Positions 21,583 through 34,041 are shown, counted from the stretch's first letter. The stretch: DNA of 64,000 nt from Corallococcus sp. AS-1-12 (GCF_020036995.1 NZ_JAIQDD010000010.1:225433-289432), one strand, 5' to 3'. A program made the numbers and translations. The notes: a model not told the origin generated them from the sequence alone.

Positions 21583-23388
21583 GTGCCTTTGTCCCGTACG
21601 AACACGCGCCTCGACCCCGTGCCCGAATCACCTGATGCGTCCGATGCGGCGCCCGGCACCCCGCCTCCTCCTCCGGAGTACACCGGCACGCATTCCCGGG
21701 AGCTCACCGCGCTGCGCGGGGAGCACACGGCCACCCGGCTGACGGGGGCGCTGGGGCTGCCGGCCGTGGAGCCCACGAGCACGGTCATCGCGCCCATGGA
21801 GGCCGGCGAGCTGCCCAACGTGGCGGCCATCCGCGGGCTTCGCTTGGATCAACTGCTGCTGCTCACCACGGGCGCGCTGGTCATCGTCATCGTGGGGCTG
21901 CTCGCCGCGCTGTCCGCGAAGACGACGGAGGCGCAGCTCACCGCGACGTCGGACCGCTTCACGCAGCGGCTCCAGTCCCAGGCGCGCGAGCTGGGCCAGA
22001 CGGTGAGCCACACGCTGGCGCTCACCTCCGCCACCAGCCTGCGTGACAACAACTACGCGTTCCTCACGGAGGTGGCGCGCTCCATCATCGCGGACAACCA
22101 CAACATCCTGCGCGTGCAGATGTTCGACGCGGACGGGCAGCTCGTCGCGGACAGCGACCCGGCCGCGAAGCTGGGCGAGTCCTCCGGAGGCCGCACCGCG
22201 GAGCGCCGCTGGGCCAGCGCCTTCTTCCAGGGCCAGCCCGTCTTCGAGTTCCAGGAGCCGCTCGACTACGGCTCGCAGGGCGGCAAGGGCGTGGTGGTCA
22301 TCAGCTACTCGCTGGAGGACCTGCAGAAGCAGCTCCACGAGCTGGAGGAGACCAACCGCGCCGCGGTGCGCGCCAACACGCTGCGCATCGTGGGGCTGGG
22401 CGTGGGCTTCGTCGTCTTGGCCGGCGTGCTGGCCGCCTTCCAGAGCCGCCGCATCACCAAGCCGCTGGGCGTGCTCACCCACCGCGTGATGCAGCTCGCC
22501 GCCGGTGACCTGGGCGCCCGCGCGGGCACGGCGCCGGGCGCGGGCCGCGAGGTGACGACGCTGGGCGTGGTGTTCAACCACATGGCGGAGCGCATCAAGG
22601 TCCTGCTGGAGGACGTGCGCGCCAAGGCGCAGTTGGAGCGCGAGGTGTCGCTCGCGCGCACGGTGCAGGAGACGCTCCTGCCGGGCCGCGAGGCCGTGAC
22701 GGTGGGGCCGCTGCGGCTGGCCGGGCTGGTGGTGCCCGCGGACGCGTGCGGCGGCGACTGGTGGTTCCGCGCCGCGCTGGACGACCGGCGCGTCGTCATT
22801 GGCATCGGAGACGTGACGGGCCACGGCCTGTCCACGTCACTGGTCGCCACCAGCGCCACCAGCGGCTTCGCCTCCGCCATGACGCTGCGCGAGCCGTCGC
22901 AGGTGCACGCGCAGATGCTCATCACCGCGCTCAACGTGACGCTGGCCAACGTGGGCCGCGGTGAGCACCAGATGTCCAGCGCGCTCGCGGTCATCGACGT
23001 GTACAGCGGCAGCATCGACTACGCGGCGGGCGCCCACCCGGCGGCGGCCATCTACAACCGGAACACGCGGCAGATGGCGTCGCTGCCGGCGCGCGGTCCG
23101 CTGCTGGGCGCGAACGTGGCGTCGCAGTTCACGTCGCGCCAGGCGCAGTTGAGCCCCGGCGACATCATCGTCTGGTACACGGACGGCCTCACGGAGGCGC
23201 GCGACGGCGCCAACCGGCTCTACGGCACGCAGCGGCTGGCCGCCGCGCTCCAGGCCCACGCCCACCTCCCCGCCGACGCCCTCCGCGACGCGCTCCTCGC
23301 GGACGTGCGCGCGTTCAGCGCCGGTCAGCCCCAGCGCGACGACATCACCGTCATCGTCGCCGAATTCAGCCCCGCCCCCTCGCCGTGA
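21583..23388 (+). CDS. Membrane-anchored HAMP-domain PP2C-family (SpoIIE/RsbU-like) Ser/Thr phosphatase
   Basis: TM helix, a periplasmic region, a second TM + HAMP, then PP2C motifs (GDVTGHGLS, DGLTEA, QRDDITV). The exact start is uncertain: GTG at 21583 or an internal ATG. Confidence 0.8.
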   Translation: MPLSRTNTRLDPVPESPDASDAAPGTPPPPPEYTGTHSRELTALRGEHTATRLTGALGLPAVEPTSTVIAPMEAGELPNVAAIRGLRLDQLLLLTTGALVIVIVGLLAALSAKTTEAQLTATSDRFTQRLQSQARELGQTVSHTLALTSATSLRDNNYAFLTEVARSIIADNHNILRVQMFDADGQLVADSDPAAKLGESSGGRTAERRWASAFFQGQPVFEFQEPLDYGSQGGKGVVVISYSLEDLQKQLHELEETNRAAVRANTLRIVGLGVGFVVLAGVLAAFQSRRITKPLGVLTHRVMQLAAGDLGARAGTAPGAGREVTTLGVVFNHMAERIKVLLEDVRAKAQLEREVSLARTVQETLLPGREAVTVGPLRLAGLVVPADACGGDWWFRAALDDRRVVIGIGDVTGHGLSTSLVATSATSGFASAMTLREPSQVHAQMLITALNVTLANVGRGEHQMSSALAVIDVYSGSIDYAAGAHPAAAIYNRNTRQMASLPARGPLLGANVASQFTSRQAQLSPGDIIVWYTDGLTEARDGANRLYGTQRLAAALQAHAHLPADALRDALLADVRAFSAGQPQRDDITVIVAEFSPAPSP

Positions 23389-23396
23389 CGAACCGC

Positions 23397-25910
23397 ATGC
23401 GCCCATTCATCCGCTCCCCGCGCCGCGTCTCCACCGCGCTCGCCCTGCTGGCCACCCTGGCCGGCCCTCCGGCGGCGCTCGCCCAGTTCCGCCCGCCGCC
23501 CGCCACCGAGGCGCAGCGCATGACGGAGCAGGGCGAGCAGGTCCTCGTGTCCGCCAACGCCGCGCTCGCGAAGGGCGACAAGAAGGAGGCCGAGGAGAAG
23601 TTCAAGAAGGCGCTCCAGCTCTTTGAACAATCGCTCGCGCAGGAGCCGCAGTCCGTGTTCGCCGCCGCGGGCCTGGGCAGCGCCGCCAACGCGCTCCAGG
23701 ACTTCCAGCGCACGGCGACGCGCCTGGCGCCGGTGTTCGCGCAGAACCCGCGGGACCTGTCGCTCGCGTACCCGCTGGGCACCGCGTACTTCAAGCTGCG
23801 CCGCTTCCAGGAGGCGGTGCCGGTGCTGGAGCAGGTGGCCGCCGCGGATCAGCCGGACCACCTCATCGTCCACTACTACCTGGCCAGCTATTACCTGTAC
23901 GTCCAGGACGGGAACCGGGCCGTGACGCGGCTGCAGCGCTACCTGGTGCTGCGCCCGGAGAAGCTCGCGGGCAACGACTTCCAGATCCACGAACTGCTGG
24001 GCAAGGCGCACCTCATCCGCCGGGACGCGGCCGCCGCGCGCGCCTCGTTCGAGAAGGCCCAGGCCGGCCGGGCGGAGTCGGCGACCGCGCAGATCGGCCT
24101 CGCGGCCGTGCTGGAGATGGAAGGCAAGGTCGCGGAGTCCCGCGCGCTCCTGGAGCGGCTGGTGACGAAGTTCCCGCAGGTGGCGGAGCCGAAGGAGCGC
24201 CTCGCGCGCCTGTACCTCGCCGCGGGCGACGTGCCGCGCGCGGACCTCCAGGCCACCGCCTTGATGAAGCTGGGCTCCACGCCCGCCGCGCACCTGTTGC
24301 TGGGTGACGTGCGGCTCGCGCAGAAGCAGCCCGCGCAGGCGGAGGCGGAGTTCCGCAAGGTGCTGGAGCTGCAGCCGGGCCTGCTGATGGGGCAGATCGC
24401 CGTGGGCAAGGCGCTCCAGGCGCAGGCGCGCCACGAGGAGGCCATCCAGTTCCTGGAGTCCGCCGTGAAGTCGGGCGGCGGCAGCCTGGAGCTGTGGGCG
24501 ACGCTGGGCTCCGTCAACCGCCGCGCCGGCCGCTACCAGCGCGCGGTGGAGGTGCACCGCCGCGTGGTGGAGATGGCCCCGCGTCAGGCGCTGGGGCACA
24601 TGCTGCTGGGCGCGGATCACTTCGCCACCGGCCAGTGGGACCAGGCCATCGAGGACTACGGCAGCGCGCTCCAGGCCGAACCCGGCCACCCCGGCGCGAA
24701 GCAGTGGCTGGCCCGGGCCCTGGCCCACCGCGCGCGCGACCGCGCCGGCACCCAGCGCCTGGAGGACGCCGTGCGCGACCTGCGCCGCGCGTATGACCTG
24801 GACCGCTCCGTGCCCATGGCCCGCCGGCTGGGCGCGGCGCTCCTGGACAGCCACCAGTTCGCGGAGGCCCGCAAGGTGCTGGAGGGCGCGGTGACGCTGC
24901 CGGGCGTGAGCTGGCGCGAGCACCTGCTGCTGGGCTACGCCCGGCTGGGCGGTGGCGACCCTCAAGCAGCGCTCGCCGCGTTCACCCAGTCCGGCGAGGC
25001 CACGCAGGAGCCGGATCAGCGCGCGGAGGCGTCCGCGGGCGCCGCGCTCGCGGAGGTGGAGCTGGGCCAGGTGGACGCCGCCGTGCAGCGGCTGACGGAC
25101 GCGGGCCCCTCCAAGACGGCCGCGAAGGTGGCGGAGGCGAACCTGCCCCGTGTGCTGGTGCGCCGGGCCCTGGCGAAGCTGGAGGCGGGCGACGCCGCCG
25201 CGGCGAACCGGGACCTGGACGCGGTGGACCGCCTGGGCACCGGCAAGCGCGCGGACCTGGCGAAGCTGGCCGCCTTCGCCCGGGCGCTCACGCGCGCGGA
25301 GGAGGGGCGGTTCGCGGAGGCCACCGCCGGCATCAAGCGCTCCCTCACGCCCGCGCCGGAGTGGGCGTGGCCCAACACGCGCGCGCTCGCGGACGCGTGG
25401 GTGCTCTACCGCCAGGGCAAGGTGGCGCCCTCGCGCAAGCTGCTCACCGCCGCCCAGAAGAAGCCCATGCCCGGGCAGCCGAAGTGGATGGGCAACCTCA
25501 CCGGCGCGCTGCTGCGGCGTGAGGCCGCGCTCGCGTACGCCTCCGGCAACATGAAGGCGTCCCAGAAGGCGCTGAAGGCCGCGCTCGCCGCGACGCCGGA
25601 CGACGCGCTGGTGCAGCACAACCTGGCGTGCGTGGACTGGCGCCAGGGCGACAGCGGCTCGGCGCTCGCGACGTGGAAGCGCCTGGAGACGTCCGTGCCC
25701 GTCGCCTCGCTCAACCTGGGCATCGACGCGCAGGAGCGCCGGCATGAACCCGCCGAGGCCGTGGACGCCTGGCGCCGCTACCTGGCCTCCGGCGCGGGCC
25801 TCCGCGCCGCCCAGGTGCGGGAATGGAAGGACCGCCTGCAGGGCCTCTATGGACTGGGTGACGCGCAGGGCGTCACGCCGGCCGCCGGGGTCGCGGAGGA
25901 GACGCCGTGA
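23397..25910 (+). CDS. Secreted tetratricopeptide-repeat (TPR) protein, ~838 aa
   Basis: Signal peptide MRPFIRSPRRVSTALALLATLAGPPAALA, then many TPR-like A/L-rich repeats. Its GTG/ATG start region overlaps the PP2C stop (GTGA). Confidence 0.8.
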   Translation: MRPFIRSPRRVSTALALLATLAGPPAALAQFRPPPATEAQRMTEQGEQVLVSANAALAKGDKKEAEEKFKKALQLFEQSLAQEPQSVFAAAGLGSAANALQDFQRTATRLAPVFAQNPRDLSLAYPLGTAYFKLRRFQEAVPVLEQVAAADQPDHLIVHYYLASYYLYVQDGNRAVTRLQRYLVLRPEKLAGNDFQIHELLGKAHLIRRDAAAARASFEKAQAGRAESATAQIGLAAVLEMEGKVAESRALLERLVTKFPQVAEPKERLARLYLAAGDVPRADLQATALMKLGSTPAAHLLLGDVRLAQKQPAQAEAEFRKVLELQPGLLMGQIAVGKALQAQARHEEAIQFLESAVKSGGGSLELWATLGSVNRRAGRYQRAVEVHRRVVEMAPRQALGHMLLGADHFATGQWDQAIEDYGSALQAEPGHPGAKQWLARALAHRARDRAGTQRLEDAVRDLRRAYDLDRSVPMARRLGAALLDSHQFAEARKVLEGAVTLPGVSWREHLLLGYARLGGGDPQAALAAFTQSGEATQEPDQRAEASAGAALAEVELGQVDAAVQRLTDAGPSKTAAKVAEANLPRVLVRRALAKLEAGDAAAANRDLDAVDRLGTGKRADLAKLAAFARALTRAEEGRFAEATAGIKRSLTPAPEWAWPNTRALADAWVLYRQGKVAPSRKLLTAAQKKPMPGQPKWMGNLTGALLRREAALAYASGNMKASQKALKAALAATPDDALVQHNLACVDWRQGDSGSALATWKRLETSVPVASLNLGIDAQERRHEPAEAVDAWRRYLASGAGLRAAQVREWKDRLQGLYGLGDAQGVTPAAGVAEETP

Positions 25911-26833
25911 AGACGCCATCCCTTGTCGCGCGGGGGAGCCTCCTGCTCGCCGCCGCGCTGTTCGCTGTTTCCGTCGCCAGCCCCGCCTCCGCCGCGCCGA
26001 AGAAGGCCACGCTGGGCGTGTTCCTCGCCACCACGCTGTCGGATGGCCAGGAGCGCTTCCAGTACGCGGAGGCGCTCGCCCAGAAGCTGGAGGCCAGCCT
26101 GGGCCGCCCCGTGGGCGCCAAGAGCTTCGGCCGCTACGAGGACTTCTCCAAGGCGGTGGGGGAGGGGCAGATCGACTTCGCCGTGGTGGACGGCTGGGCC
26201 GCGGTGCAACTGGGCGCCAGGGCGGAGGCGGTGGCGTACGCCCCGCGCGCCGGTGAGACGCAGCAGCGCTGGGCCATCATCTCCCTCCAGAAGGGCACCG
26301 TGAAGGACCTCGCCGGCAAGCGCATGGCGCTGGTCAAGGGCGCGGGCTCCTCGGACCCCAAGTTCGTCTCCCACGTGGTGCTGGGCGGCGACCTGGATGC
26401 CCAGAAGCACTTCAAGCTGGTGCCGGTGCCCAACGTGGAGTCGGCGGTGAAGATGCTGGAGGCCAAGGGCGCGGAGGCCGCGCTCGTGCCGGTGGCGCAC
26501 GTGCCCAGGGACATGCGGGTCCTCTTCAAGAGCACCCGGGTGCCGGGCGCCGTCCTGGTGGACCTGAAGGGCGGGGGAGACGCGTTGTCCCAGTCCCTGT
26601 CCTCCGTGGGTGCGGTGGCCCCGTTCGACGCCTTCACCCGCATCCAGGGCCGCGAGTTCGAGGACTTCCGCAAGCTCGTCACCCAGGGCCCCCCGCGCCG
26701 CCAGCCCGTCTTCGCGGACCCCCCCGACCTGAGGGTGGAGACCCCCGTGTTCGTCCAGTCCGAGTCGCTGGGTCCCGCGCTCCCGCCCTTCGCGGACGAC
26801 CTGGCCGTCTCCGCCGAACAGCCCGATGACTGA
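25907..26833 (+). CDS. Periplasmic substrate-binding protein, PhnD/SsuA-like fold (ABC-type SBP without adjacent permease or ATPase)
   Basis: Signal peptide; SBP-like region KRMALVKGAGSSDPKFVSHVVLGG. GTG start overlapping the TPR stop (GTGA at 25907-25910). Confidence 0.65.
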   Translation: MKTPSLVARGSLLLAAALFAVSVASPASAAPKKATLGVFLATTLSDGQERFQYAEALAQKLEASLGRPVGAKSFGRYEDFSKAVGEGQIDFAVVDGWAAVQLGARAEAVAYAPRAGETQQRWAIISLQKGTVKDLAGKRMALVKGAGSSDPKFVSHVVLGGDLDAQKHFKLVPVPNVESAVKMLEAKGAEAALVPVAHVPRDMRVLFKSTRVPGAVLVDLKGGGDALSQSLSSVGAVAPFDAFTRIQGREFEDFRKLVTQGPPRRQPVFADPPDLRVETPVFVQSESLGPALPPFADDLAVSAEQPDD

Positions 26834-27069
26834 TTGCGCCGTGAGCTGATCCGCGTGGGGCGCCCCCGCCGCCCCGCGCATGTTTCAGCGCGATCGACAG
26901 CCATGACTTGGCCTAAGGCGAGTTATTGCGGTAATTTGAGAAGTCGAGCGGAACGCCACCGTTCAGGGGTGGAAACTCGTCCCTGAGAACGATTGCCAGT
27001 CGCACCGGCTCTGGATCCTGGCGCAACGACCGCGGACATCCCTGCTTCCCCCTCGTGGAATTGAGAACG

Positions 27070-29688
27070 ATGGACTCGACTGAGTACGGTGGGCCGCGCA
27101 CCAACGCGGTGAAGGGGTTTGCCGGTAGGCTGGGCGCGCGCGCCTGCCTCACCCTGGTGGTCTGCGCACTGTCCCTCTTCGCGGTGGAGACGGCCCAGGC
27201 CCAGGAGGCCCAGGAGCCTGCCCCGAAGACGCGGACCAAGGCCGCCCGCAAGCGCGCGGCGGCCGCCGCGGGCGCGAAGGCCACGACGCCGGGCGCGAAG
27301 GCCGCCACGCCGGGCGCGAAGCCTCCGCGCACGGCGAAGACGCGCCGGGGCGCGAAGACGCCGCCCCCGCCGGTGGAGCCGGAGGTCATCCCGGCGGATG
27401 AGCCCACCCCGCAGGAGCCGGCGCTCGCCACCGAGCCGCCGCCCGCGGCGCCTCCCGCCCCCGTGGCCGGCCCCGGTCCGTCCGTGGCGGATCCGCTGCC
27501 CGTGGCCTCGCCGGCCTCCGCGTCGCCGTCCCCGTATGATGGGCCGCTGACCACGGACATCCCGTCCAACCCGCCGCCCGCGCCCGCGCTGGGTGCCGGC
27601 GCGGTGCTGCCGGCGTCGCAGCCGCGCATGGCGGACAACGTCCCGGACCGCGCGCCCTTCACGGAGCCCGCCTCCGACCGCGCGCTGCCGCCGCCCTCCA
27701 GCCTCTCCGGCCTGGACGGCCCGGACCTGGGCGGGGGCGACGACCTGGAGCAGAACATCAACATGGCGCTGAGCGAGGCCGTCGTCACCACGGCGTCCAA
27801 GCGCAGCCAGCGCATCTCCGACGTGCCCCTCACGGTGTCGTGGATCCCGGCGGAGGAGCTGGAGGGCACCGGCCAGTTCTCGCTCTGCGAGGCCATCCAG
27901 TACTTCCCCGGCATGGAGTGCCGCCGGGGCTCCATGCGCAAGGCGGCGGTGAGCGCGCGCGGCCTGGGCTCCAACTACCTGTCCAACCGCCTGCTGCTCC
28001 TCAAGGATGGCCGTCCGCTGACGGACCCCTGGACGGGCCAGTTCTACGCGGATGAGACGACGCCGCTCACCAACCTGAAGCAGGTGGAGGTGATTCGCGG
28101 CCCGGGCTCCTCGCTCTACGGCTCCAACGCCTTCAGCGGCGTCATCAACATCATCGAGCGCCAGCCCGCGGACCTCATCGCCAAGGGCCAGAACGTGGGC
28201 GCCGACGCGCGCATCCTCGCGGGCCAGGACAAGACCTGGCGCCTGCAGACCAACGTCGCCGGCCGCGGCGGCCCGGTGGAGGCGCTGCTCGGCTACTACG
28301 GCTTCGGCTCGGACGGCCCGCAGCTCTTCAACAACCCGCAGCTCGGCCAGACGGACACCAACGAGGACTCGCTGGTCCACCAGGTGAACGGCAAGGTCCG
28401 CGTGGGGCCGCTCGCGCTGGACGCGGACTTCACGGACGGCAACATCGGCCGGCCCGGCGGGCAGAACATCTCCACCGTGGGCAACTGCGGCCGCTGCCAC
28501 TACACCGCGCAGGACAACGAGCACGTCCAGAACCTGAACGCCGCCCTGCAGTTGGATCAGCAGGTGACGGACAACGTGCGCGTGTTCGCCCAGGGCTACG
28601 CCTTCTTCAAGCGCCGCAACGTGACGCTGGAGAATGAGATCACCGGCGCGCTGGAGGACACGCTGGGCAAGCGCAGCCGCCTGGGCGGTGAGGCGCGCGC
28701 GCTGTTCTCCCTGGACAAGCTGTCCGTCACCGTCGGCGGCGACGTGAAGGCCGACCAGGTGAACAACCAGAACATCCTGCCCGGCCTGACCCTGGACGAC
28801 ACGAAGCAGACCATCCTGGGCGGCTTCGTGGACGCCGAGTACCGCGTCACGGACCGGCTGGTGGTGGGCGCGGGCGCCCGCTACGACAACTACCAGATCC
28901 CCTCCAGGGTCTGGGAGGCGAAGACGGATCAGATCTCCCCGCGCGCCAGCGTGGTGTTCCACGCCATCCCGGAGCTGCTCACGCTGCGCACCAACTACGG
29001 CCGCGCCTTCCGCGCGCCCACGCTGGCGGAGCTGGCCATCAACCAGCAGATGTACGCCGCGACGCTCTTGGGCAACCCGGCCCTGCGCGCGGAGACGCTG
29101 GACACGGTGGAGGCGGCGGTGGACTTCTGGCCGCTGGACCGCAGGGTGCGCCTGACGGGCACGGGCTTCTACAACCGCGCCCGGAACTTCATCAACCAGG
29201 AGCTGCTCTTCGGCTCCACGTCCCAGTTCAAGAACCTGGGCGACGCGCGCGTGGCGGGCTTCGAGGCCGAGGCCGCGGCGCAGGTGCCGTCCATCAACTC
29301 GTCCTTCGACGTGGCCTACCAGTTCCTGGACGCCCAGGCGCTGCCGGTGGGCGGCGGGGCCGGCTACCCGCTGGACTACGCGCCCACCCACCGCGTCTAC
29401 CTGCGCGGCCGCACCAACATCGGCAAGTTCGCCTTCGTGGAGCTCTACGGCCTGTTCGTGGGCGCCCGGTATGATCCGGGCTTCGTGGTGGACGAGAACG
29501 CCGGCACCACCACCCGCGTGAAGCTGCCCAGCTACATCACCGCGACCGCGCGCGTGGGCTTCAACGTCCACGAGCGCGTGGCGGTGTCCCTGCTGGGGAC
29601 CAACCTCTTCAACGCGAAGTACGAGGAGTCCCACGGCTTCCCCGCCCCGCCGCTGGGCGTCTTCACCGAAGTCCGGCTCCATTATTAG
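27070..29688 (+). CDS. TonB-dependent outer-membrane receptor with a ~230-aa Pro/Ala/Lys-rich N-terminal extension
   Basis: Signal peptide and low-complexity linker with GAKA(T/A)TP repeats, a plug domain (SKRSQRISDVPLTVSWI; IRGPGSSLYGSNAFSGVINI) and a 22-strand barrel ending in ...EVRLHY. Confidence 0.85.
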   Translation: MDSTEYGGPRTNAVKGFAGRLGARACLTLVVCALSLFAVETAQAQEAQEPAPKTRTKAARKRAAAAAGAKATTPGAKAATPGAKPPRTAKTRRGAKTPPPPVEPEVIPADEPTPQEPALATEPPPAAPPAPVAGPGPSVADPLPVASPASASPSPYDGPLTTDIPSNPPPAPALGAGAVLPASQPRMADNVPDRAPFTEPASDRALPPPSSLSGLDGPDLGGGDDLEQNINMALSEAVVTTASKRSQRISDVPLTVSWIPAEELEGTGQFSLCEAIQYFPGMECRRGSMRKAAVSARGLGSNYLSNRLLLLKDGRPLTDPWTGQFYADETTPLTNLKQVEVIRGPGSSLYGSNAFSGVINIIERQPADLIAKGQNVGADARILAGQDKTWRLQTNVAGRGGPVEALLGYYGFGSDGPQLFNNPQLGQTDTNEDSLVHQVNGKVRVGPLALDADFTDGNIGRPGGQNISTVGNCGRCHYTAQDNEHVQNLNAALQLDQQVTDNVRVFAQGYAFFKRRNVTLENEITGALEDTLGKRSRLGGEARALFSLDKLSVTVGGDVKADQVNNQNILPGLTLDDTKQTILGGFVDAEYRVTDRLVVGAGARYDNYQIPSRVWEAKTDQISPRASVVFHAIPELLTLRTNYGRAFRAPTLAELAINQQMYAATLLGNPALRAETLDTVEAAVDFWPLDRRVRLTGTGFYNRARNFINQELLFGSTSQFKNLGDARVAGFEAEAAAQVPSINSSFDVAYQFLDAQALPVGGGAGYPLDYAPTHRVYLRGRTNIGKFAFVELYGLFVGARYDPGFVVDENAGTTTRVKLPSYITATARVGFNVHERVAVSLLGTNLFNAKYEESHGFPAPPLGVFTEVRLHY
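27277..27360 (+). repeat. Imperfect 21-bp periodic repeat encoding GAKA(T/A)TP / GAKPPRT / GAKTPPP in the TBDT N-terminal extension
   Basis: ggcgcgaaggccacgacgccg ggcgcgaaggccgccacgccg ggcgcgaagcct... seen directly. Confidence 0.6.
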
Positions 29689-29696
29689 GGCCCTGT

Positions 29697-30539
29697 TTGG
29701 ATACCGTCGCCGCCGTGAAGGATGCTCCCCTGAAGTTGACGCCGGACACGACGCTCACGCCGGAGGCGCTGGAGAAGGCCTCCGGGGTGCTGGCCCGGGA
29801 CGGCCTGTTGTTGGGGCGCGGTGACGACGCGGCGCCGCGGCTGGTGCTGTTCGACGGGCGGTTCACCCCCGCCCACGCCGAGCTCCTGGAGCGCCGTCCC
29901 CCGGCGCTGCTGCTGGCCACCCGCGAGGGCGGCCAGCCGTCCGCCTGGGAGGCGCGGTTGCTCAGCGCGCTCCTGCGCGGCGAGCCCATGATCCCCCAGG
30001 AGGCCGCCACGTCCGTGGCGTGGCTGGGCAGCGTGGCGGAGGTGACGGCCGTGGGCGAGCGCGCGGCCGAGGCCGTCCTCCAGGCCGGCGGCTCCAAGGG
30101 CGCGGCCAGCCGCGTGGCGGATGTCGTCCATGAGATTGGTGTGAACGCCCTGCTCGACGCGCCAGTGGACGGAAGCGGCGAGCCGAAGTACGCCCACCGG
30201 CGTGGCCAGGTGCAGTCGGTGGCGGAAGAGGATCGCTGCCTGGTGTCCTGGGCGGTGGCGGACGGCCGGGCCTGGCTGGAGGCGACGGATCGCTTCGGCC
30301 GCCTGTCGGTGTCACCGCTGGTGCGGGTGGTGAAGGCGTGGGGTGAGAAGGCGCAGGTGGATGCTTCGGGTGGTGGCGCGGGCCTGGGCCTGCGGCGCAT
30401 CCTGGAGCACAGCGACGCAGTGGCGGTGCGGGTGAGTCCGGGAAAGCGCACGCAGTTCGCCTGCGGGGTGGATCTGGGAGACGCTCGCCGCCGGGCCGCG
30501 CAGCCCAAGTCGCTGCTGTTCTGTCTGGAACGAGGGTAG
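29697..30539 (+). CDS. Hypothetical protein. Its C-terminal region has weak GHKL-ATPase-like G-box features (GGGAGLGLRRIL), so it is possibly an RsbW-like serine kinase/anti-sigma-type protein.
   Basis: Eight nt after the TBDT stop and 4 nt before the STPK start. TTG/GTG start. The domain call rests on motif resemblance only. Confidence 0.5.
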   Translation: MDTVAAVKDAPLKLTPDTTLTPEALEKASGVLARDGLLLGRGDDAAPRLVLFDGRFTPAHAELLERRPPALLLATREGGQPSAWEARLLSALLRGEPMIPQEAATSVAWLGSVAEVTAVGERAAEAVLQAGGSKGAASRVADVVHEIGVNALLDAPVDGSGEPKYAHRRGQVQSVAEEDRCLVSWAVADGRAWLEATDRFGRLSVSPLVRVVKAWGEKAQVDASGGGAGLGLRRILEHSDAVAVRVSPGKRTQFACGVDLGDARRRAAQPKSLLFCLERG

Positions 30540-30543
30540 GCGG

Positions 30544-33500
30544 GTGGAGAGCCAAACTTCCAATGCCAGCATCACCTCCCTGCGCGTGGGCAGTCTGACC
30601 CACGTGCGCGTGGCCGGGGTGATCGACGAAACCTTCCCCCTCTCCCCAGCCTCCAAGGGCCTCCAGGGCCTGGTGGTGGTGGACCTGGGCCTGGTCGAGC
30701 GCATCAGCTCCTTCGGCGTGCGCCGGTGGATTGAGTTCGCCGGCCACCCGCCGCAGGGCGTGTCGGGGCTGTACGTCGTCAACGCGCCGCCGGTGGTGGT
30801 GGATCAGCTCAACATGGTGGAGGGCTTCGCGGGCGTCGCGCGCGTGCTCTCGCTGCTGGCGCCGTACTCGTGCCGCTTCTGCAAGGAGGACCGGCTGCGG
30901 CTGGTGCGCCTGGTGGAGGAGGCGAAGGTGCTGGAGCAGGGCGGGGCCCCGCCGCACCAGTGCCCCGTGTGCGCCCAGCCGCTGGAGTTCGCGGACGAGC
31001 CCACGGAGTTCTTCGACTTCGCGCGCCGCCAGCAGTTCTCCGCGGTGGACCCGGCGGTGCTGCGCTACCTGCGCTCCGGCATCCCCTCGGAGCCGTCCGA
31101 GCTCTCGTCGCACCTGAAGATCATCCAGGACGACATCACCTTCATCACCCTGGCCAGCACGCTCAAGGGCGACCTGAACGTGCGCCGGCTGGCGTCCGGC
31201 CTGGAGGGGCGCGTCGCGTTCGACTGCTGCCACGTGAGCGTGGTGGAGCCGGAGGCGCTGCCGCGCATCGAGCAGGTGCTGGAGGTGGCGTCGCAGGGCG
31301 CCCAGGTGGTGCTCTGCCGCGTGCCGCCGCCGCTGTTGGCCGTGCTGGCGAAGTCCACCAAGACGCTGCCCGCGAAGCTGGCCACGCTGTGGCTGCCGTG
31401 CGACTGCCGCAACTGCGGCCAGGTCACCCACCAGCGCATCCAGACCTCCGAGTACCTGGAGGTGCTGCGCTCCAAGGGCACCATGGAGCGCGTGTGCCCC
31501 GTCTGCGGCGGCAGCGCCCGGGCTCCGGCGCTCTCGCAGTTCCAGGGGCTGCTCGCGCGCACGCCGCTCACCGACAAGCCGCTGGACGACATCGAGGCGC
31601 TGGAGCAGCGCGCCCTCAGCCAGTACCTCTTCGGCTCCACCAACCAGGACCCCGGCGCCAAGGGCACGTCCGCCACGGACACGCACAACAGCGGCGCGCG
31701 GCTGCAGATCATCCGCCGGCTGGGGCAGGGCGGCATGGCGGAGGTCTTCCTCGCCAAGCAGCAGGGCGTGAAGGGCTTCGAGAAGTTCGTCGTGATGAAG
31801 AAGATTCTCGCGCAGTTCGCGGAGAATCCTGAGTTCGTCGACATGCTCTTCGCGGAGGCCCGCGCCAACGCGCGCCTCACGCACCCCAACGTCGTGCAGA
31901 CCTTCGACGTGGGCGTGACGGACGGCGTGGCGTACATCCTGATGGAGTACGTGCGCGGCCCGGACCTGAAGCGCCTGCTCACGGAGCTGCGCCGCAAGGG
32001 CATGGCGCTGCCGCTGGAGCACGCGCTGCGCATCGTGGCGGAGGTGGCCGCGGGCCTGCACTACGCGCACAGCTACGTGGACCCGTCCGGCACGGCGCAC
32101 CCGGTGGTGCACCGCGACGTCAGCCCCCACAACGTGTTGGTGTCGCTGGACGGCGCCATCAAGCTGTCGGACTTCGGCATCGCCAAGGTGCAGGGCGAGG
32201 AGCACACGCAGGCGGGCGTCATCAAGGGGAAGATCTCCTACCTCTCCCCGGAGGCCGCCAGCGGCCGCCCGCTGGACTGGCGCAACGACGTGTTCGCGCT
32301 GGGCGTGGTGCTCTTCGAGCTGCTCACCGGCCAGTTGCCGTTCCGCCGGGACCATGACGCGGCCACGCTCGCGGCCATCGTGCGCGAGCCCGCGCCGGTG
32401 CCCTCGCAGTTGCGGCCCCACATCCCGCAGGACGTGTCGGACCTGATCCTCCGCGCGCTGGTGAAGGACCCGGCGCGGCGCACGCCCTCCGCGGCGGCGA
32501 TGCGCGAGGAGATCGAAGCCGTCATCGCGCACCACCGGCTGTCCTCGTCGCCCGCGTCGGTGGCGCAGTTCTTCAAGGAGGCGCTGGGTGACCGGCTCTC
32601 CGAGTACGCGCCGTCGTCCATCGCCGGCTCGGGGACGGGCTCCAACCCCCGGGCTCTGATGCCGGGCACGGGCTCGCACTCGCGCAACCTGGGCACGGGC
32701 TCCGGCAGCGACATGCGGGCCCCGTCGGACCTGTCCCGGCCGCCCGTGCGCGGCGGCTCCGGCAGCATGCCCCGCATGGAGCCGCCCCCGGTGGCCTCCC
32801 CGCCGGAGCCCGCCGAGCGCGGGACCGAGGTCGTCTCCGTCTCCTCGCCGCCCGTGGCCTCGCCTCCGGTGGCCCCGCCCGTGGCCGCCGCGCCCCGTCC
32901 GTCGCGCCCGGCCGCGGCTCCGCCCACGTCGCCGCTGCCGCCGCCCTCCGCGGTGCGCCCCGCCGCGTCCGCCAACGTGCCCACGCGCGTGGGCCCCCCG
33001 CCGCAGGCGCCCGCGCGCCCGTCGGTGTCGGTGCCCTCCGTCGCCCCCATGACCGCGGCCCCGCCGCCGCCCCCTGTGTCCGCCATGCCGCCCCCGCCGC
33101 CGCATGGGGGCACCCACGCGCAATACGGGGTCGCCCACGTGCAGCAGGGAGGCGCGCCGCCGCCGCAGGCAGGTGCCTACGCACCCCAGGGAGGCGCTTC
33201 GCAGTCGCAGGCAGGTGCCTACGCCCCACAGGGAGGCGCTTCGCAGCCGCAGGCAGGTGCCTACGCGCAGCAGGGAGGCGCTTCGCAGCCGCAGGCAGGT
33301 GCCCACGCGCCGCAAGGGGGCTCTCCGCGGACGTCAGGCACCCACGCGCCGCCGACGACGGGCACCCACGCCGCCTATGGGGGGAGCCATCCCTCGTCCG
33401 TGGCCGCGCCGCCGCCGCCTGTCTCGGCGCCCATGGCCCCGCCCGCGCGGGCGCCAGCGGCCCACGTGGCCCCGCCGCCGGCTCCCGTCCACGCGGTCTC

Positions 33501-34041
33501 CCCCACGGCTCAAGCGCCCGCCGCCGAAGCGACGGCGAAGGGGCTGACGCCCGGCCAGCGCAAGGGGCTCATCGTGGGCGGCGTGGCCCTGGTGCTCGCG
33601 GGGCTCGCGCTGGTGTTCCTGCTGCCCAAGGGCGGCGTGGAGGTGCGCAACGCCCAGGAGGGTGAGCGCGTCTACGTGTCCGGTGTCCTGCTGGACGCGA
33701 ACCAGGGCCTGCCCGAGGGCAACGCCGGCTGGCTCATCTCCACGGCCGTGGACGGCAAGCTGCACCGCTTCGGCAAGGTGCCGAGGTCGGAGCACATCGA
33801 CCTGCGCACGCTCGCGGACGCCCCGCCCCAGGCGGAGGCCCGGGGCACGCTCAGCGTCACCGGCGCCCAGGGCTGCCGCGTCGCGCTGGGCTCGCAGGTG
33901 CTGGAGGGCCAGACGCCCCTGTCCAGCCAGATGCCCGCGGGCCGCGAGTTCGAGGTGCGCGTCACCTGTGGCGGCAAGCCGGACCTCGTCCGCTGGGTGA
34001 TGGCCGTCCCGGGACAGGGCGTCGCGCTGGACGTGCCCTGA
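30544..34041 (+). CDS. Hanks-type Ser/Thr protein kinase. Domain order is two N-terminal STAS-like domains each followed by a CxxC...CxxC zinc-ribbon, a kinase domain, a ~330-aa Pro/Ala/Gln-rich disordered region with tandem repeats, a TM helix and a C-terminal extracytoplasmic domain.
   Basis: Kinase subdomains GQGGMAEVFLAK, VMKK, HRDVSPHNVL, DFGIAK and SPE. Duplicated STAS-like and Zn-ribbon units at aa 1-190 and 190-340. Single TM GLIVGGVALVLAGLALVFLL near the C-terminus. Confidence 0.85.
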   Translation: MESQTSNASITSLRVGSLTHVRVAGVIDETFPLSPASKGLQGLVVVDLGLVERISSFGVRRWIEFAGHPPQGVSGLYVVNAPPVVVDQLNMVEGFAGVARVLSLLAPYSCRFCKEDRLRLVRLVEEAKVLEQGGAPPHQCPVCAQPLEFADEPTEFFDFARRQQFSAVDPAVLRYLRSGIPSEPSELSSHLKIIQDDITFITLASTLKGDLNVRRLASGLEGRVAFDCCHVSVVEPEALPRIEQVLEVASQGAQVVLCRVPPPLLAVLAKSTKTLPAKLATLWLPCDCRNCGQVTHQRIQTSEYLEVLRSKGTMERVCPVCGGSARAPALSQFQGLLARTPLTDKPLDDIEALEQRALSQYLFGSTNQDPGAKGTSATDTHNSGARLQIIRRLGQGGMAEVFLAKQQGVKGFEKFVVMKKILAQFAENPEFVDMLFAEARANARLTHPNVVQTFDVGVTDGVAYILMEYVRGPDLKRLLTELRRKGMALPLEHALRIVAEVAAGLHYAHSYVDPSGTAHPVVHRDVSPHNVLVSLDGAIKLSDFGIAKVQGEEHTQAGVIKGKISYLSPEAASGRPLDWRNDVFALGVVLFELLTGQLPFRRDHDAATLAAIVREPAPVPSQLRPHIPQDVSDLILRALVKDPARRTPSAAAMREEIEAVIAHHRLSSSPASVAQFFKEALGDRLSEYAPSSIAGSGTGSNPRALMPGTGSHSRNLGTGSGSDMRAPSDLSRPPVRGGSGSMPRMEPPPVASPPEPAERGTEVVSVSSPPVASPPVAPPVAAAPRPSRPAAAPPTSPLPPPSAVRPAASANVPTRVGPPPQAPARPSVSVPSVAPMTAAPPPPPVSAMPPPPPHGGTHAQYGVAHVQQGGAPPPQAGAYAPQGGASQSQAGAYAPQGGASQPQAGAYAQQGGASQPQAGAHAPQGGSPRTSGTHAPPTTGTHAAYGGSHPSSVAAPPPPVSAPMAPPARAPAAHVAPPPAPVHAVSPTAQAPAAEATAKGLTPGQRKGLIVGGVALVLAGLALVFLLPKGGVEVRNAQEGERVYVSGVLLDANQGLPEGNAGWLISTAVDGKLHRFGKVPRSEHIDLRTLADAPPQAEARGTLSVTGAQGCRVALGSQVLEGQTPLSSQMPAGREFEVRVTCGGKPDLVRWVMAVPGQGVALDVP
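33165..33320 (+). repeat. In-frame 48-bp tandem repeat (~3.3 copies) inside the STPK low-complexity region, encoding (Q)AGAYAPQGGASQ(S/P)Q
   Basis: gcaggcaggtgcctacgc(a/c)cc(c/a)cagggaggcgcttcgcag(t/c)cg repeated head-to-tail. Confidence 0.8.

Follow-up and report, generated by a model that had tools for sequence, protein, structure and literature searches.

A Myxobacterial Gene Block in Which a Partner-Switching-Like Phospho-Switch May Gate a Fused Hanks-Type Kinase

Introduction

Bacterial serine/threonine signalling by partner switching is usually considered apart from signalling by Hanks-type kinases. The block of six genes described here, located in a 64,000-nucleotide stretch of DNA from Corallococcus sp. 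AS-1-12 (the whole of which we call the window), fuses a predicted partner-switching switch domain to a Hanks catalytic domain and carries a dedicated GHKL gene beside it. With classical partner switching (SpoIIE/SpoIIAA/SpoIIAB; RsbU/RsbV/RsbW) the block has in common a phosphatase of the SpoIIE/RsbU-family PP2C type, a GHKL protein whose predicted fold lies nearest to those of SpoIIAB, RsbW, and UsfX, and a STAS fold with a conserved serine at the N-terminus of helix 2. The classical systems, however, employ a free, single-domain STAS protein and have a sigma factor as their target, whereas the STAS domains considered here form a zinc-ribbon tandem fused to a Hanks kinase, and the locus holds no such target. 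The GHKL protein of the block also differs from its classical counterparts in carrying roughly 110 additional amino acids as a separate N-terminal domain and in escaping the HATPase HMMs, and its phosphatase differs in being a predicted periplasm-sensing membrane protein.

Two described systems come closer, in that each has a partner-switching-like arrangement with an output other than a sigma factor. The SiaABCD module of Pseudomonas aeruginosa (PMC7647112, PMC8457831) resembles the block in its membrane HAMP-PP2C protein and in having a switch protein that controls an enzyme and not a sigma factor. The SiaABCD output is reported to be a diguanylate cyclase, whereas here it would be a Hanks kinase, fused to the switch domain, and the acceptor in the block, unlike that of SiaABCD, is predicted at the canonical STAS serine position; Pfam finds no GGDEF domain (the SiaD-type output) in the block. 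In the HenR/All4160 system of Anabaena (PMC13555669), a STAS domain is fused directly to the regulated enzyme, no sigma factor is involved, and a PP2C-type phosphatase together with anti-sigma-type kinases sets the phosphorylation state. The enzyme regulated there, a glycosyltransferase, bears one STAS domain and lacks zinc ribbons, as against the tandem-bearing Hanks kinase found here; the phosphatase is a response regulator and not a periplasm-sensing HAMP protein; and the system has no dedicated adjacent family of GHKL genes, of which the block has one member.

The remaining genes of the block invite comparison with two envelope signalling systems. AioX, a PF12974 protein, signals to the sCache sensor AioS (PMC8050422), and the likeness lies in a transporter-less PF12974 protein encoded with signalling genes and in a membrane sensor with a small periplasmic domain, here possibly sCache-like. 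The AioX/AioS receptor is a histidine kinase, whereas in the block it would be a PP2C phosphatase, whose interaction with the binding protein is our supposition; the block further includes a TPR protein as well as a TonB-dependent receptor (TBDT). FecA-type signalling likewise pairs a TonB-dependent receptor with a signalling protein of the cytoplasmic membrane, but it relies on an STN domain and an ECF sigma/anti-sigma pair, neither of which the block possesses, and the N-terminal extension of our receptor is of low complexity.

The initial annotation of the window recognised no described system in the arrangement. Our literature search found no account of a cassette made up of GHKL protein, STAS-ribbon module, and Hanks kinase, and to that extent the view stands; SiaABCD and HenR/All4160 are nevertheless precedents for its principle.

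Results

Organization of the Gene Block

Six ORFs, all on the + strand and thus sharing a reading direction, span positions 21583-34041 of the window, in agreement with the coordinates of the six codirectional genes first annotated. Third-position GC lies between 0.89 and 0.97 in all six, which supports them as coding. Their counterpart in Myxococcus xanthus is MXAN_4562 to MXAN_4557.

21583-23388, + strand: HAMP-PP2C phosphatase gene, 601 aa; ortholog MXAN_4562
23385-25910, + strand: TPR protein gene, 841 aa
25907-26833, + strand: PhnD-like binding protein gene, 308 aa
26834-27054, no strand: intergenic gap, 221 nt
27055-29688, + strand: TonB-dependent receptor gene, 877 aa; ortholog MXAN_4559
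29697-30539, + strand: GHKL protein gene, 280 aa; ortholog MXAN_4558
30544-34041, + strand: Hanks kinase gene (STPK), 1165 aa

Read directly, the junctions contain 4-nt GTGA stop/start overlaps at 23385 (PP2C/TPR) and 25907 (TPR/PhnD). Both overlaps had been noted correctly, but in the accompanying list of gaps (8, -4, 236, 8, and 4 nt) the first value should be -4. From the PhnD stop it is 221 nt to a GTG at 27055 and 236 nt to an ATG at 27070; the receptor stop precedes the GHKL start by 8 nt, and 4 nt separate the GHKL gene from the kinase gene. The 221-nt gap is likely to be the boundary of two transcription units, PP2C-TPR-PhnD and TBDT-GHKL-STPK; a promoter and terminator scan of the gap gave no informative signal. 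The six genes and their immediate flanks contain neither a sigma factor gene nor an ECF sigma/anti-sigma pair, and a sigma factor target may be encoded outside the locus.

Components of the Predicted Phospho-Switch

The first gene product had been described as an RsbU-like HAMP-PP2C membrane phosphatase, and Pfam agrees: it matches SpoIIE/PP2C (E = 1e-38, over 191 of 192 profile positions) and HAMP (E = 4e-9), and on these matches it is a member of the SpoIIE/RsbU-type PP2C family. Two transmembrane (TM) segments are predicted, spanning residues 91-109 and 267-285 (TM scan), and are followed by HAMP at 288-338 and PP2C at 400-595 (Pfam). The predicted periplasmic domain of about 155 aa between the two TM segments has a sub-threshold resemblance to sCache_4 (E = 0.0011; 19.2 bits, cut-off 22.1). 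The top NCBIfam match is SiaA (NF038263), at 85.6 bits; an assignment as the SiaA equivalog was rejected, this score being far under the 700-bit cut-off.

The 280-aa protein comprises a small alpha/beta domain (residues 1-110) and a predicted SpoIIAB/RsbW-type GHKL ATP-binding domain (about 115-280), and is predicted to be cytoplasmic. It finds no HATPase match in Pfam and reaches no curated HMM threshold, so that a HATPase HMM search does not bear out the weak GHKL call made earlier, and the family as a whole has no match in Pfam, NCBIfam, or PDB sequences. The call is upheld instead by structure prediction and profile comparison, which confirm a predicted SpoIIAB/RsbW-fold GHKL protein; its closest folds (SpoIIAB, RsbW, UsfX) are those of STAS-phosphorylating kinases. 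The motifs are an N-box with E146 and N150, D198-x-F-G, and G225-GGAGLG; relatives as distant as 23-25 % identity still show no substitution at the N-box, G1, and G2 residues. R76, P81, W84, and E85 are likewise invariant in the N-terminal domain.

Residues 1-345 of the Hanks kinase consist of a duplicated unit, each copy a STAS domain (residues 7-108 and 187-286 of the 1165-aa protein) followed by a four-cysteine zinc ribbon.

30562-31038, + strand: STAS unit 1 and zinc ribbon 1, residues 7-165; Cys C110, C113, C140, C143
31102-31566, + strand: STAS unit 2 and zinc ribbon 2, residues 187-341; Cys C288, C291, C318, C321
31705-32502, + strand: Hanks Ser/Thr kinase catalytic domain, residues 388-653; Pfam Pkinase E = 1e-41
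32503-34041, + strand: linker, TM segment, and C-terminal domain (TM scan)

Pfam STAS_2 stays sub-threshold on this protein (19 bits, cut-off 29.2), NCBIfam does not pick up the STAS units either, and the assignment of two STAS-like domains, each with a zinc ribbon, is borne out by structure and profiles. The AF2 model of the STAS domain (pLDDT 91.7) finds its best PDB matches by Foldseek in SpoIIAA, RsbV, RsfB, RsbS, and 4hyl, with anti-sigma antagonists on top, at modest E-values of 4e-3 to 5e-2. The STAS profile matches the sequence of the STAS protein 4hyl at E = 1.9e-5 and aligns S56 with the second serine of 'MSSAG'; with the model, this match puts Ser56 (codon 30709-30711, motif [ST]-S-[FY]-G-[VI]-R-x-W) at the position of the SpoIIAA phosphoserine, the N-terminus of helix 2. 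Modelled in this way, the kinase N-terminus is a STAS fold with a predicted phosphorylatable serine at the start of helix 2. Of 156 relatives aligned at this residue, 154 have serine; the four positions of zinc ribbon 1 are cysteine in 155-159 of 160. A conserved acceptor is confined to unit 1, since unit 2 has Glu-Pro in its place. An hhalign comparison of the two units (probability 99.9, E = 1.8e-33) identifies unit 2 as a duplicate of unit 1.

The catalytic motifs of the Hanks domain are intact (Gly-loop GQGGMAEV, the lysine in VVMKK, HRDVSPHN, DFG, and SPE). Beyond it lies a linker rich in Pro and Ala, in which 14-aa repeats occur (42-bp tandem repeat, 33133-33340). The protein then crosses the membrane once, by a predicted TM segment (residues 1009-1027, nt 33568-33624), and ends in a C-terminal domain of some 138 aa that is predicted to be extracytoplasmic and matches no Pfam family. 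The SpoIIE match (E = 1e-38), the SpoIIAB/RsbW fold, and Ser56 agree with the original proposal that PP2C, GHKL, and STAS parts are all present, and the fusion of the STAS units to a eukaryotic-like kinase, with no sigma gene in the block or its flanks, agrees with the contrast it drew to classical, sigma-controlling partner switching.

Products of the Envelope Genes

These, too, are much as first annotated. The TPR protein matches many TPR families in Pfam, with E-values down to 2e-30, and its N-terminus appears, from the sequence, to resemble a signal peptide. The PhnD-like protein matches Phosphonate-bd (PF12974, E = 2e-11), carries a hydrophobic N-terminal segment (residues 6-24, TM scan), and is accompanied by neither an ABC permease nor an ATPase within the block and the genes immediately flanking it. 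In the receptor, Pfam finds Plug (254-363, E = 3e-18) and a TonB barrel (459-851, E = 3e-43) and no further domain, the STN signalling domain being absent; the extension of about 250 residues ahead of Plug, which had been called disordered, opens with a signal sequence and is otherwise mostly rich in Pro and Ala. The nearest NCBIfam subfamily, TonB-hemin, scores under its cut-off. A FecA-type signalling role for the receptor was rejected, given that it consists of Plug and barrel only and that ECF sigma/anti-sigma genes are missing. The N-terminal extension carries a 21-bp tandem repeat.

Discussion

By analogy with the systems introduced above, we think it probable, if far from certain, that the block is a partner-switching-like phospho-switch that gates a fused Hanks kinase and receives a lineage-specific periplasmic input. 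The GHKL protein would bind STAS unit 1 of the kinase and phosphorylate Ser56, the predicted acceptor; the membrane HAMP-PP2C would strip the phosphate from it; and the phosphorylation state of STAS-1 would set the activity, or the choice of partner, of the fused transmembrane kinase. STAS-2, non-phosphorylatable, and both zinc ribbons would probably offer docking or scaffold surfaces. This core is drawn from how the families behave elsewhere and is laid over folds, motifs, a duplication, a conserved serine, and a gene linkage that are observed. More speculatively, in Myxococcaceae and Archangiaceae the phosphatase may take its cue from the periplasm, where the translationally coupled TPR protein and the transporter-less PhnD-like protein would serve its sensor domain (about 155 aa), with a ligand that would enter the periplasm through the adjacent TonB-dependent receptor.

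The six-gene order is preserved in at least seven genera (Corallococcus, Myxococcus, Pyxidicoccus, Citreicoccus, Archangium, Vitiosangium, and Hyalangium), and the arrangement is therefore more than chance. Wherever one of the 62 genome loci extends downstream past the GHKL gene, the STAS-kinase gene adjoins it. Among 41 distant metagenome loci, the STAS-ribbon module lies directly downstream of the GHKL gene in 29 and in the same locus in 36; PP2C occurs in 10 of the 41, many of the contigs being short. PP2C, GHKL, and STPK stand in a row in L057, and L098 has the order STPK-STAS, GHKL, PP2C. These comparisons of sequence support the view that GHKL, STAS-ribbon, and PP2C are tied together well beyond Corallococcus. 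The GHKL protein has relatives in at least 392 metagenome stretches, the STAS-ribbon module accounts for 2292 representative clusters when matches with E up to 1e-3 are counted, and a two-gene core of the two appears to be widespread among environmental bacteria.

The envelope genes are less firmly attached, and the block might consist of two unrelated units, with TPR, PhnD, and TBDT an ordinary nutrient or metal uptake set that sits where it does through clade synteny and passes on no signal. These three genes are found only at Myxococcaceae/Archangiaceae-like loci; distant cassettes do without them, as do the myxobacterial loci L050, L057, and L077. In L059 and L075 PP2C lies on the strand opposite TBDT-GHKL-STPK, and since TPR and PhnD are also matched opposite in L059, that locus is split at the 221-nt gap between the halves. 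Synteny in the clade is generally high, an unrelated upstream E1 dehydrogenase gene being conserved as well, so that the placing of the envelope genes beside the switch carries little weight, and the receptor has no signalling domain. Against this, 4-nt overlaps join PP2C, TPR, and PhnD, and the receptor stop falls 8 nt before the GHKL start; the PhnD-like protein, with no permease or ATPase, is like the signalling binding protein AioX; L059 retains all six genes together despite its inversion; and in L047 and L049 the cassette has binding proteins of another kind beside it. On balance we regard two unrelated units as rather unlikely. The same observations (no STN domain or ECF sigma/anti-sigma pair, envelope genes confined to one group of loci and missing from some of its members, inversion of the halves in L059 and L075) tell against the cell-surface route originally proposed, from TBDT through PP2C/STAS to STPK, and we infer that input from the binding protein to the periplasmic domain of the phosphatase is more plausible.

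A second alternative, which we judge distinctly unlikely, reverses the roles: the Hanks domain would phosphorylate its own STAS domain, in cis or in trans, PP2C would reverse this, and the GHKL protein would be a sequestered anti-sigma-like factor that, once freed, acts on a sigma factor or other target elsewhere, possibly via its conserved N-terminal domain. That extra domain could indeed bind a third partner, and in M. tuberculosis phosphorylation of an anti-anti-sigma homolog, Rv0516c, by PknD has been reported (PMC1847690). A weaker GHKL subgroup, moreover, lies upstream of Hanks kinases in which the STAS-ribbon module is missing (L101 and others), a pattern at odds with a strictly STAS-mediated mechanism. 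However, every ATP-binding residue of the GHKL domain is invariant, which argues for catalysis and not mere binding, and the six genes and their immediate flanks are devoid of sigma genes. GHKL homologs also lie directly upstream of STAS-ribbon proteins without a kinase domain (L063, L068); because such pairs exist with no Hanks domain (P0150, P0175), the role of a general STAS kinase cannot fall to the Hanks kinase.

The stressosome illustrates a scaffold role for STAS domains. It is very improbable that the STAS-ribbon tandem serves to bind ligands or nucleotides or to oligomerise and is no phospho-switch, with GHKL as its ATPase or co-chaperone and PP2C acting on Hanks phosphosites (activation loop or substrates): STAS domains elsewhere do bind nucleotides and other ligands and serve as scaffolds (PMC2887360), and the zinc ribbons and Ser-less unit 2 hint at roles beyond phosphorylation, but Ser56 is near-invariant at the exact SpoIIAA phospho-site, the GHKL partner's closest folds are specifically kinases that phosphorylate STAS domains, and the PP2C belongs to the SpoIIE/RsbU branch, which acts on phospho-STAS.

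If the reading of the cassette as a phospho-switch gating a Hanks kinase is true, the cassette would join the two main systems of bacterial Ser/Thr phosphorylation in a hierarchy, and it is built from two unannotated families, the GHKL family and the STAS-ribbon module. Should the envelope link hold, the block would exemplify a possible new mode of input, in which a binding protein and a TonB-dependent receptor drive a receptor phosphatase. A broader proposal, which we offer only tentatively, is that a widespread, unannotated cassette of SpoIIAB-like GHKL protein, STAS-zinc-ribbon tandem, and often RsbU-type PP2C might directly control Hanks kinases as well as FIST, PDZ, and cyclase effectors, and might in myxobacteria be wired to TonB-dependent uptake of an extracellular cue. 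MXAN_4562 is reported to be the sole SpoIIE-like phosphatase of M. xanthus (PMC2887360), which makes the system genetically clean there, and the organism is tractable: one phosphatase, one adjacent predicted GHKL kinase, and one predicted acceptor serine.

The cassette also varies in architecture and in its neighbours. In L049 and L055, PP2C forms a single fusion protein with a histidine kinase that bears four receiver domains. The binding protein that adjoins the GHKL gene in L049 and L047 is a different one, SBP_bac_8.

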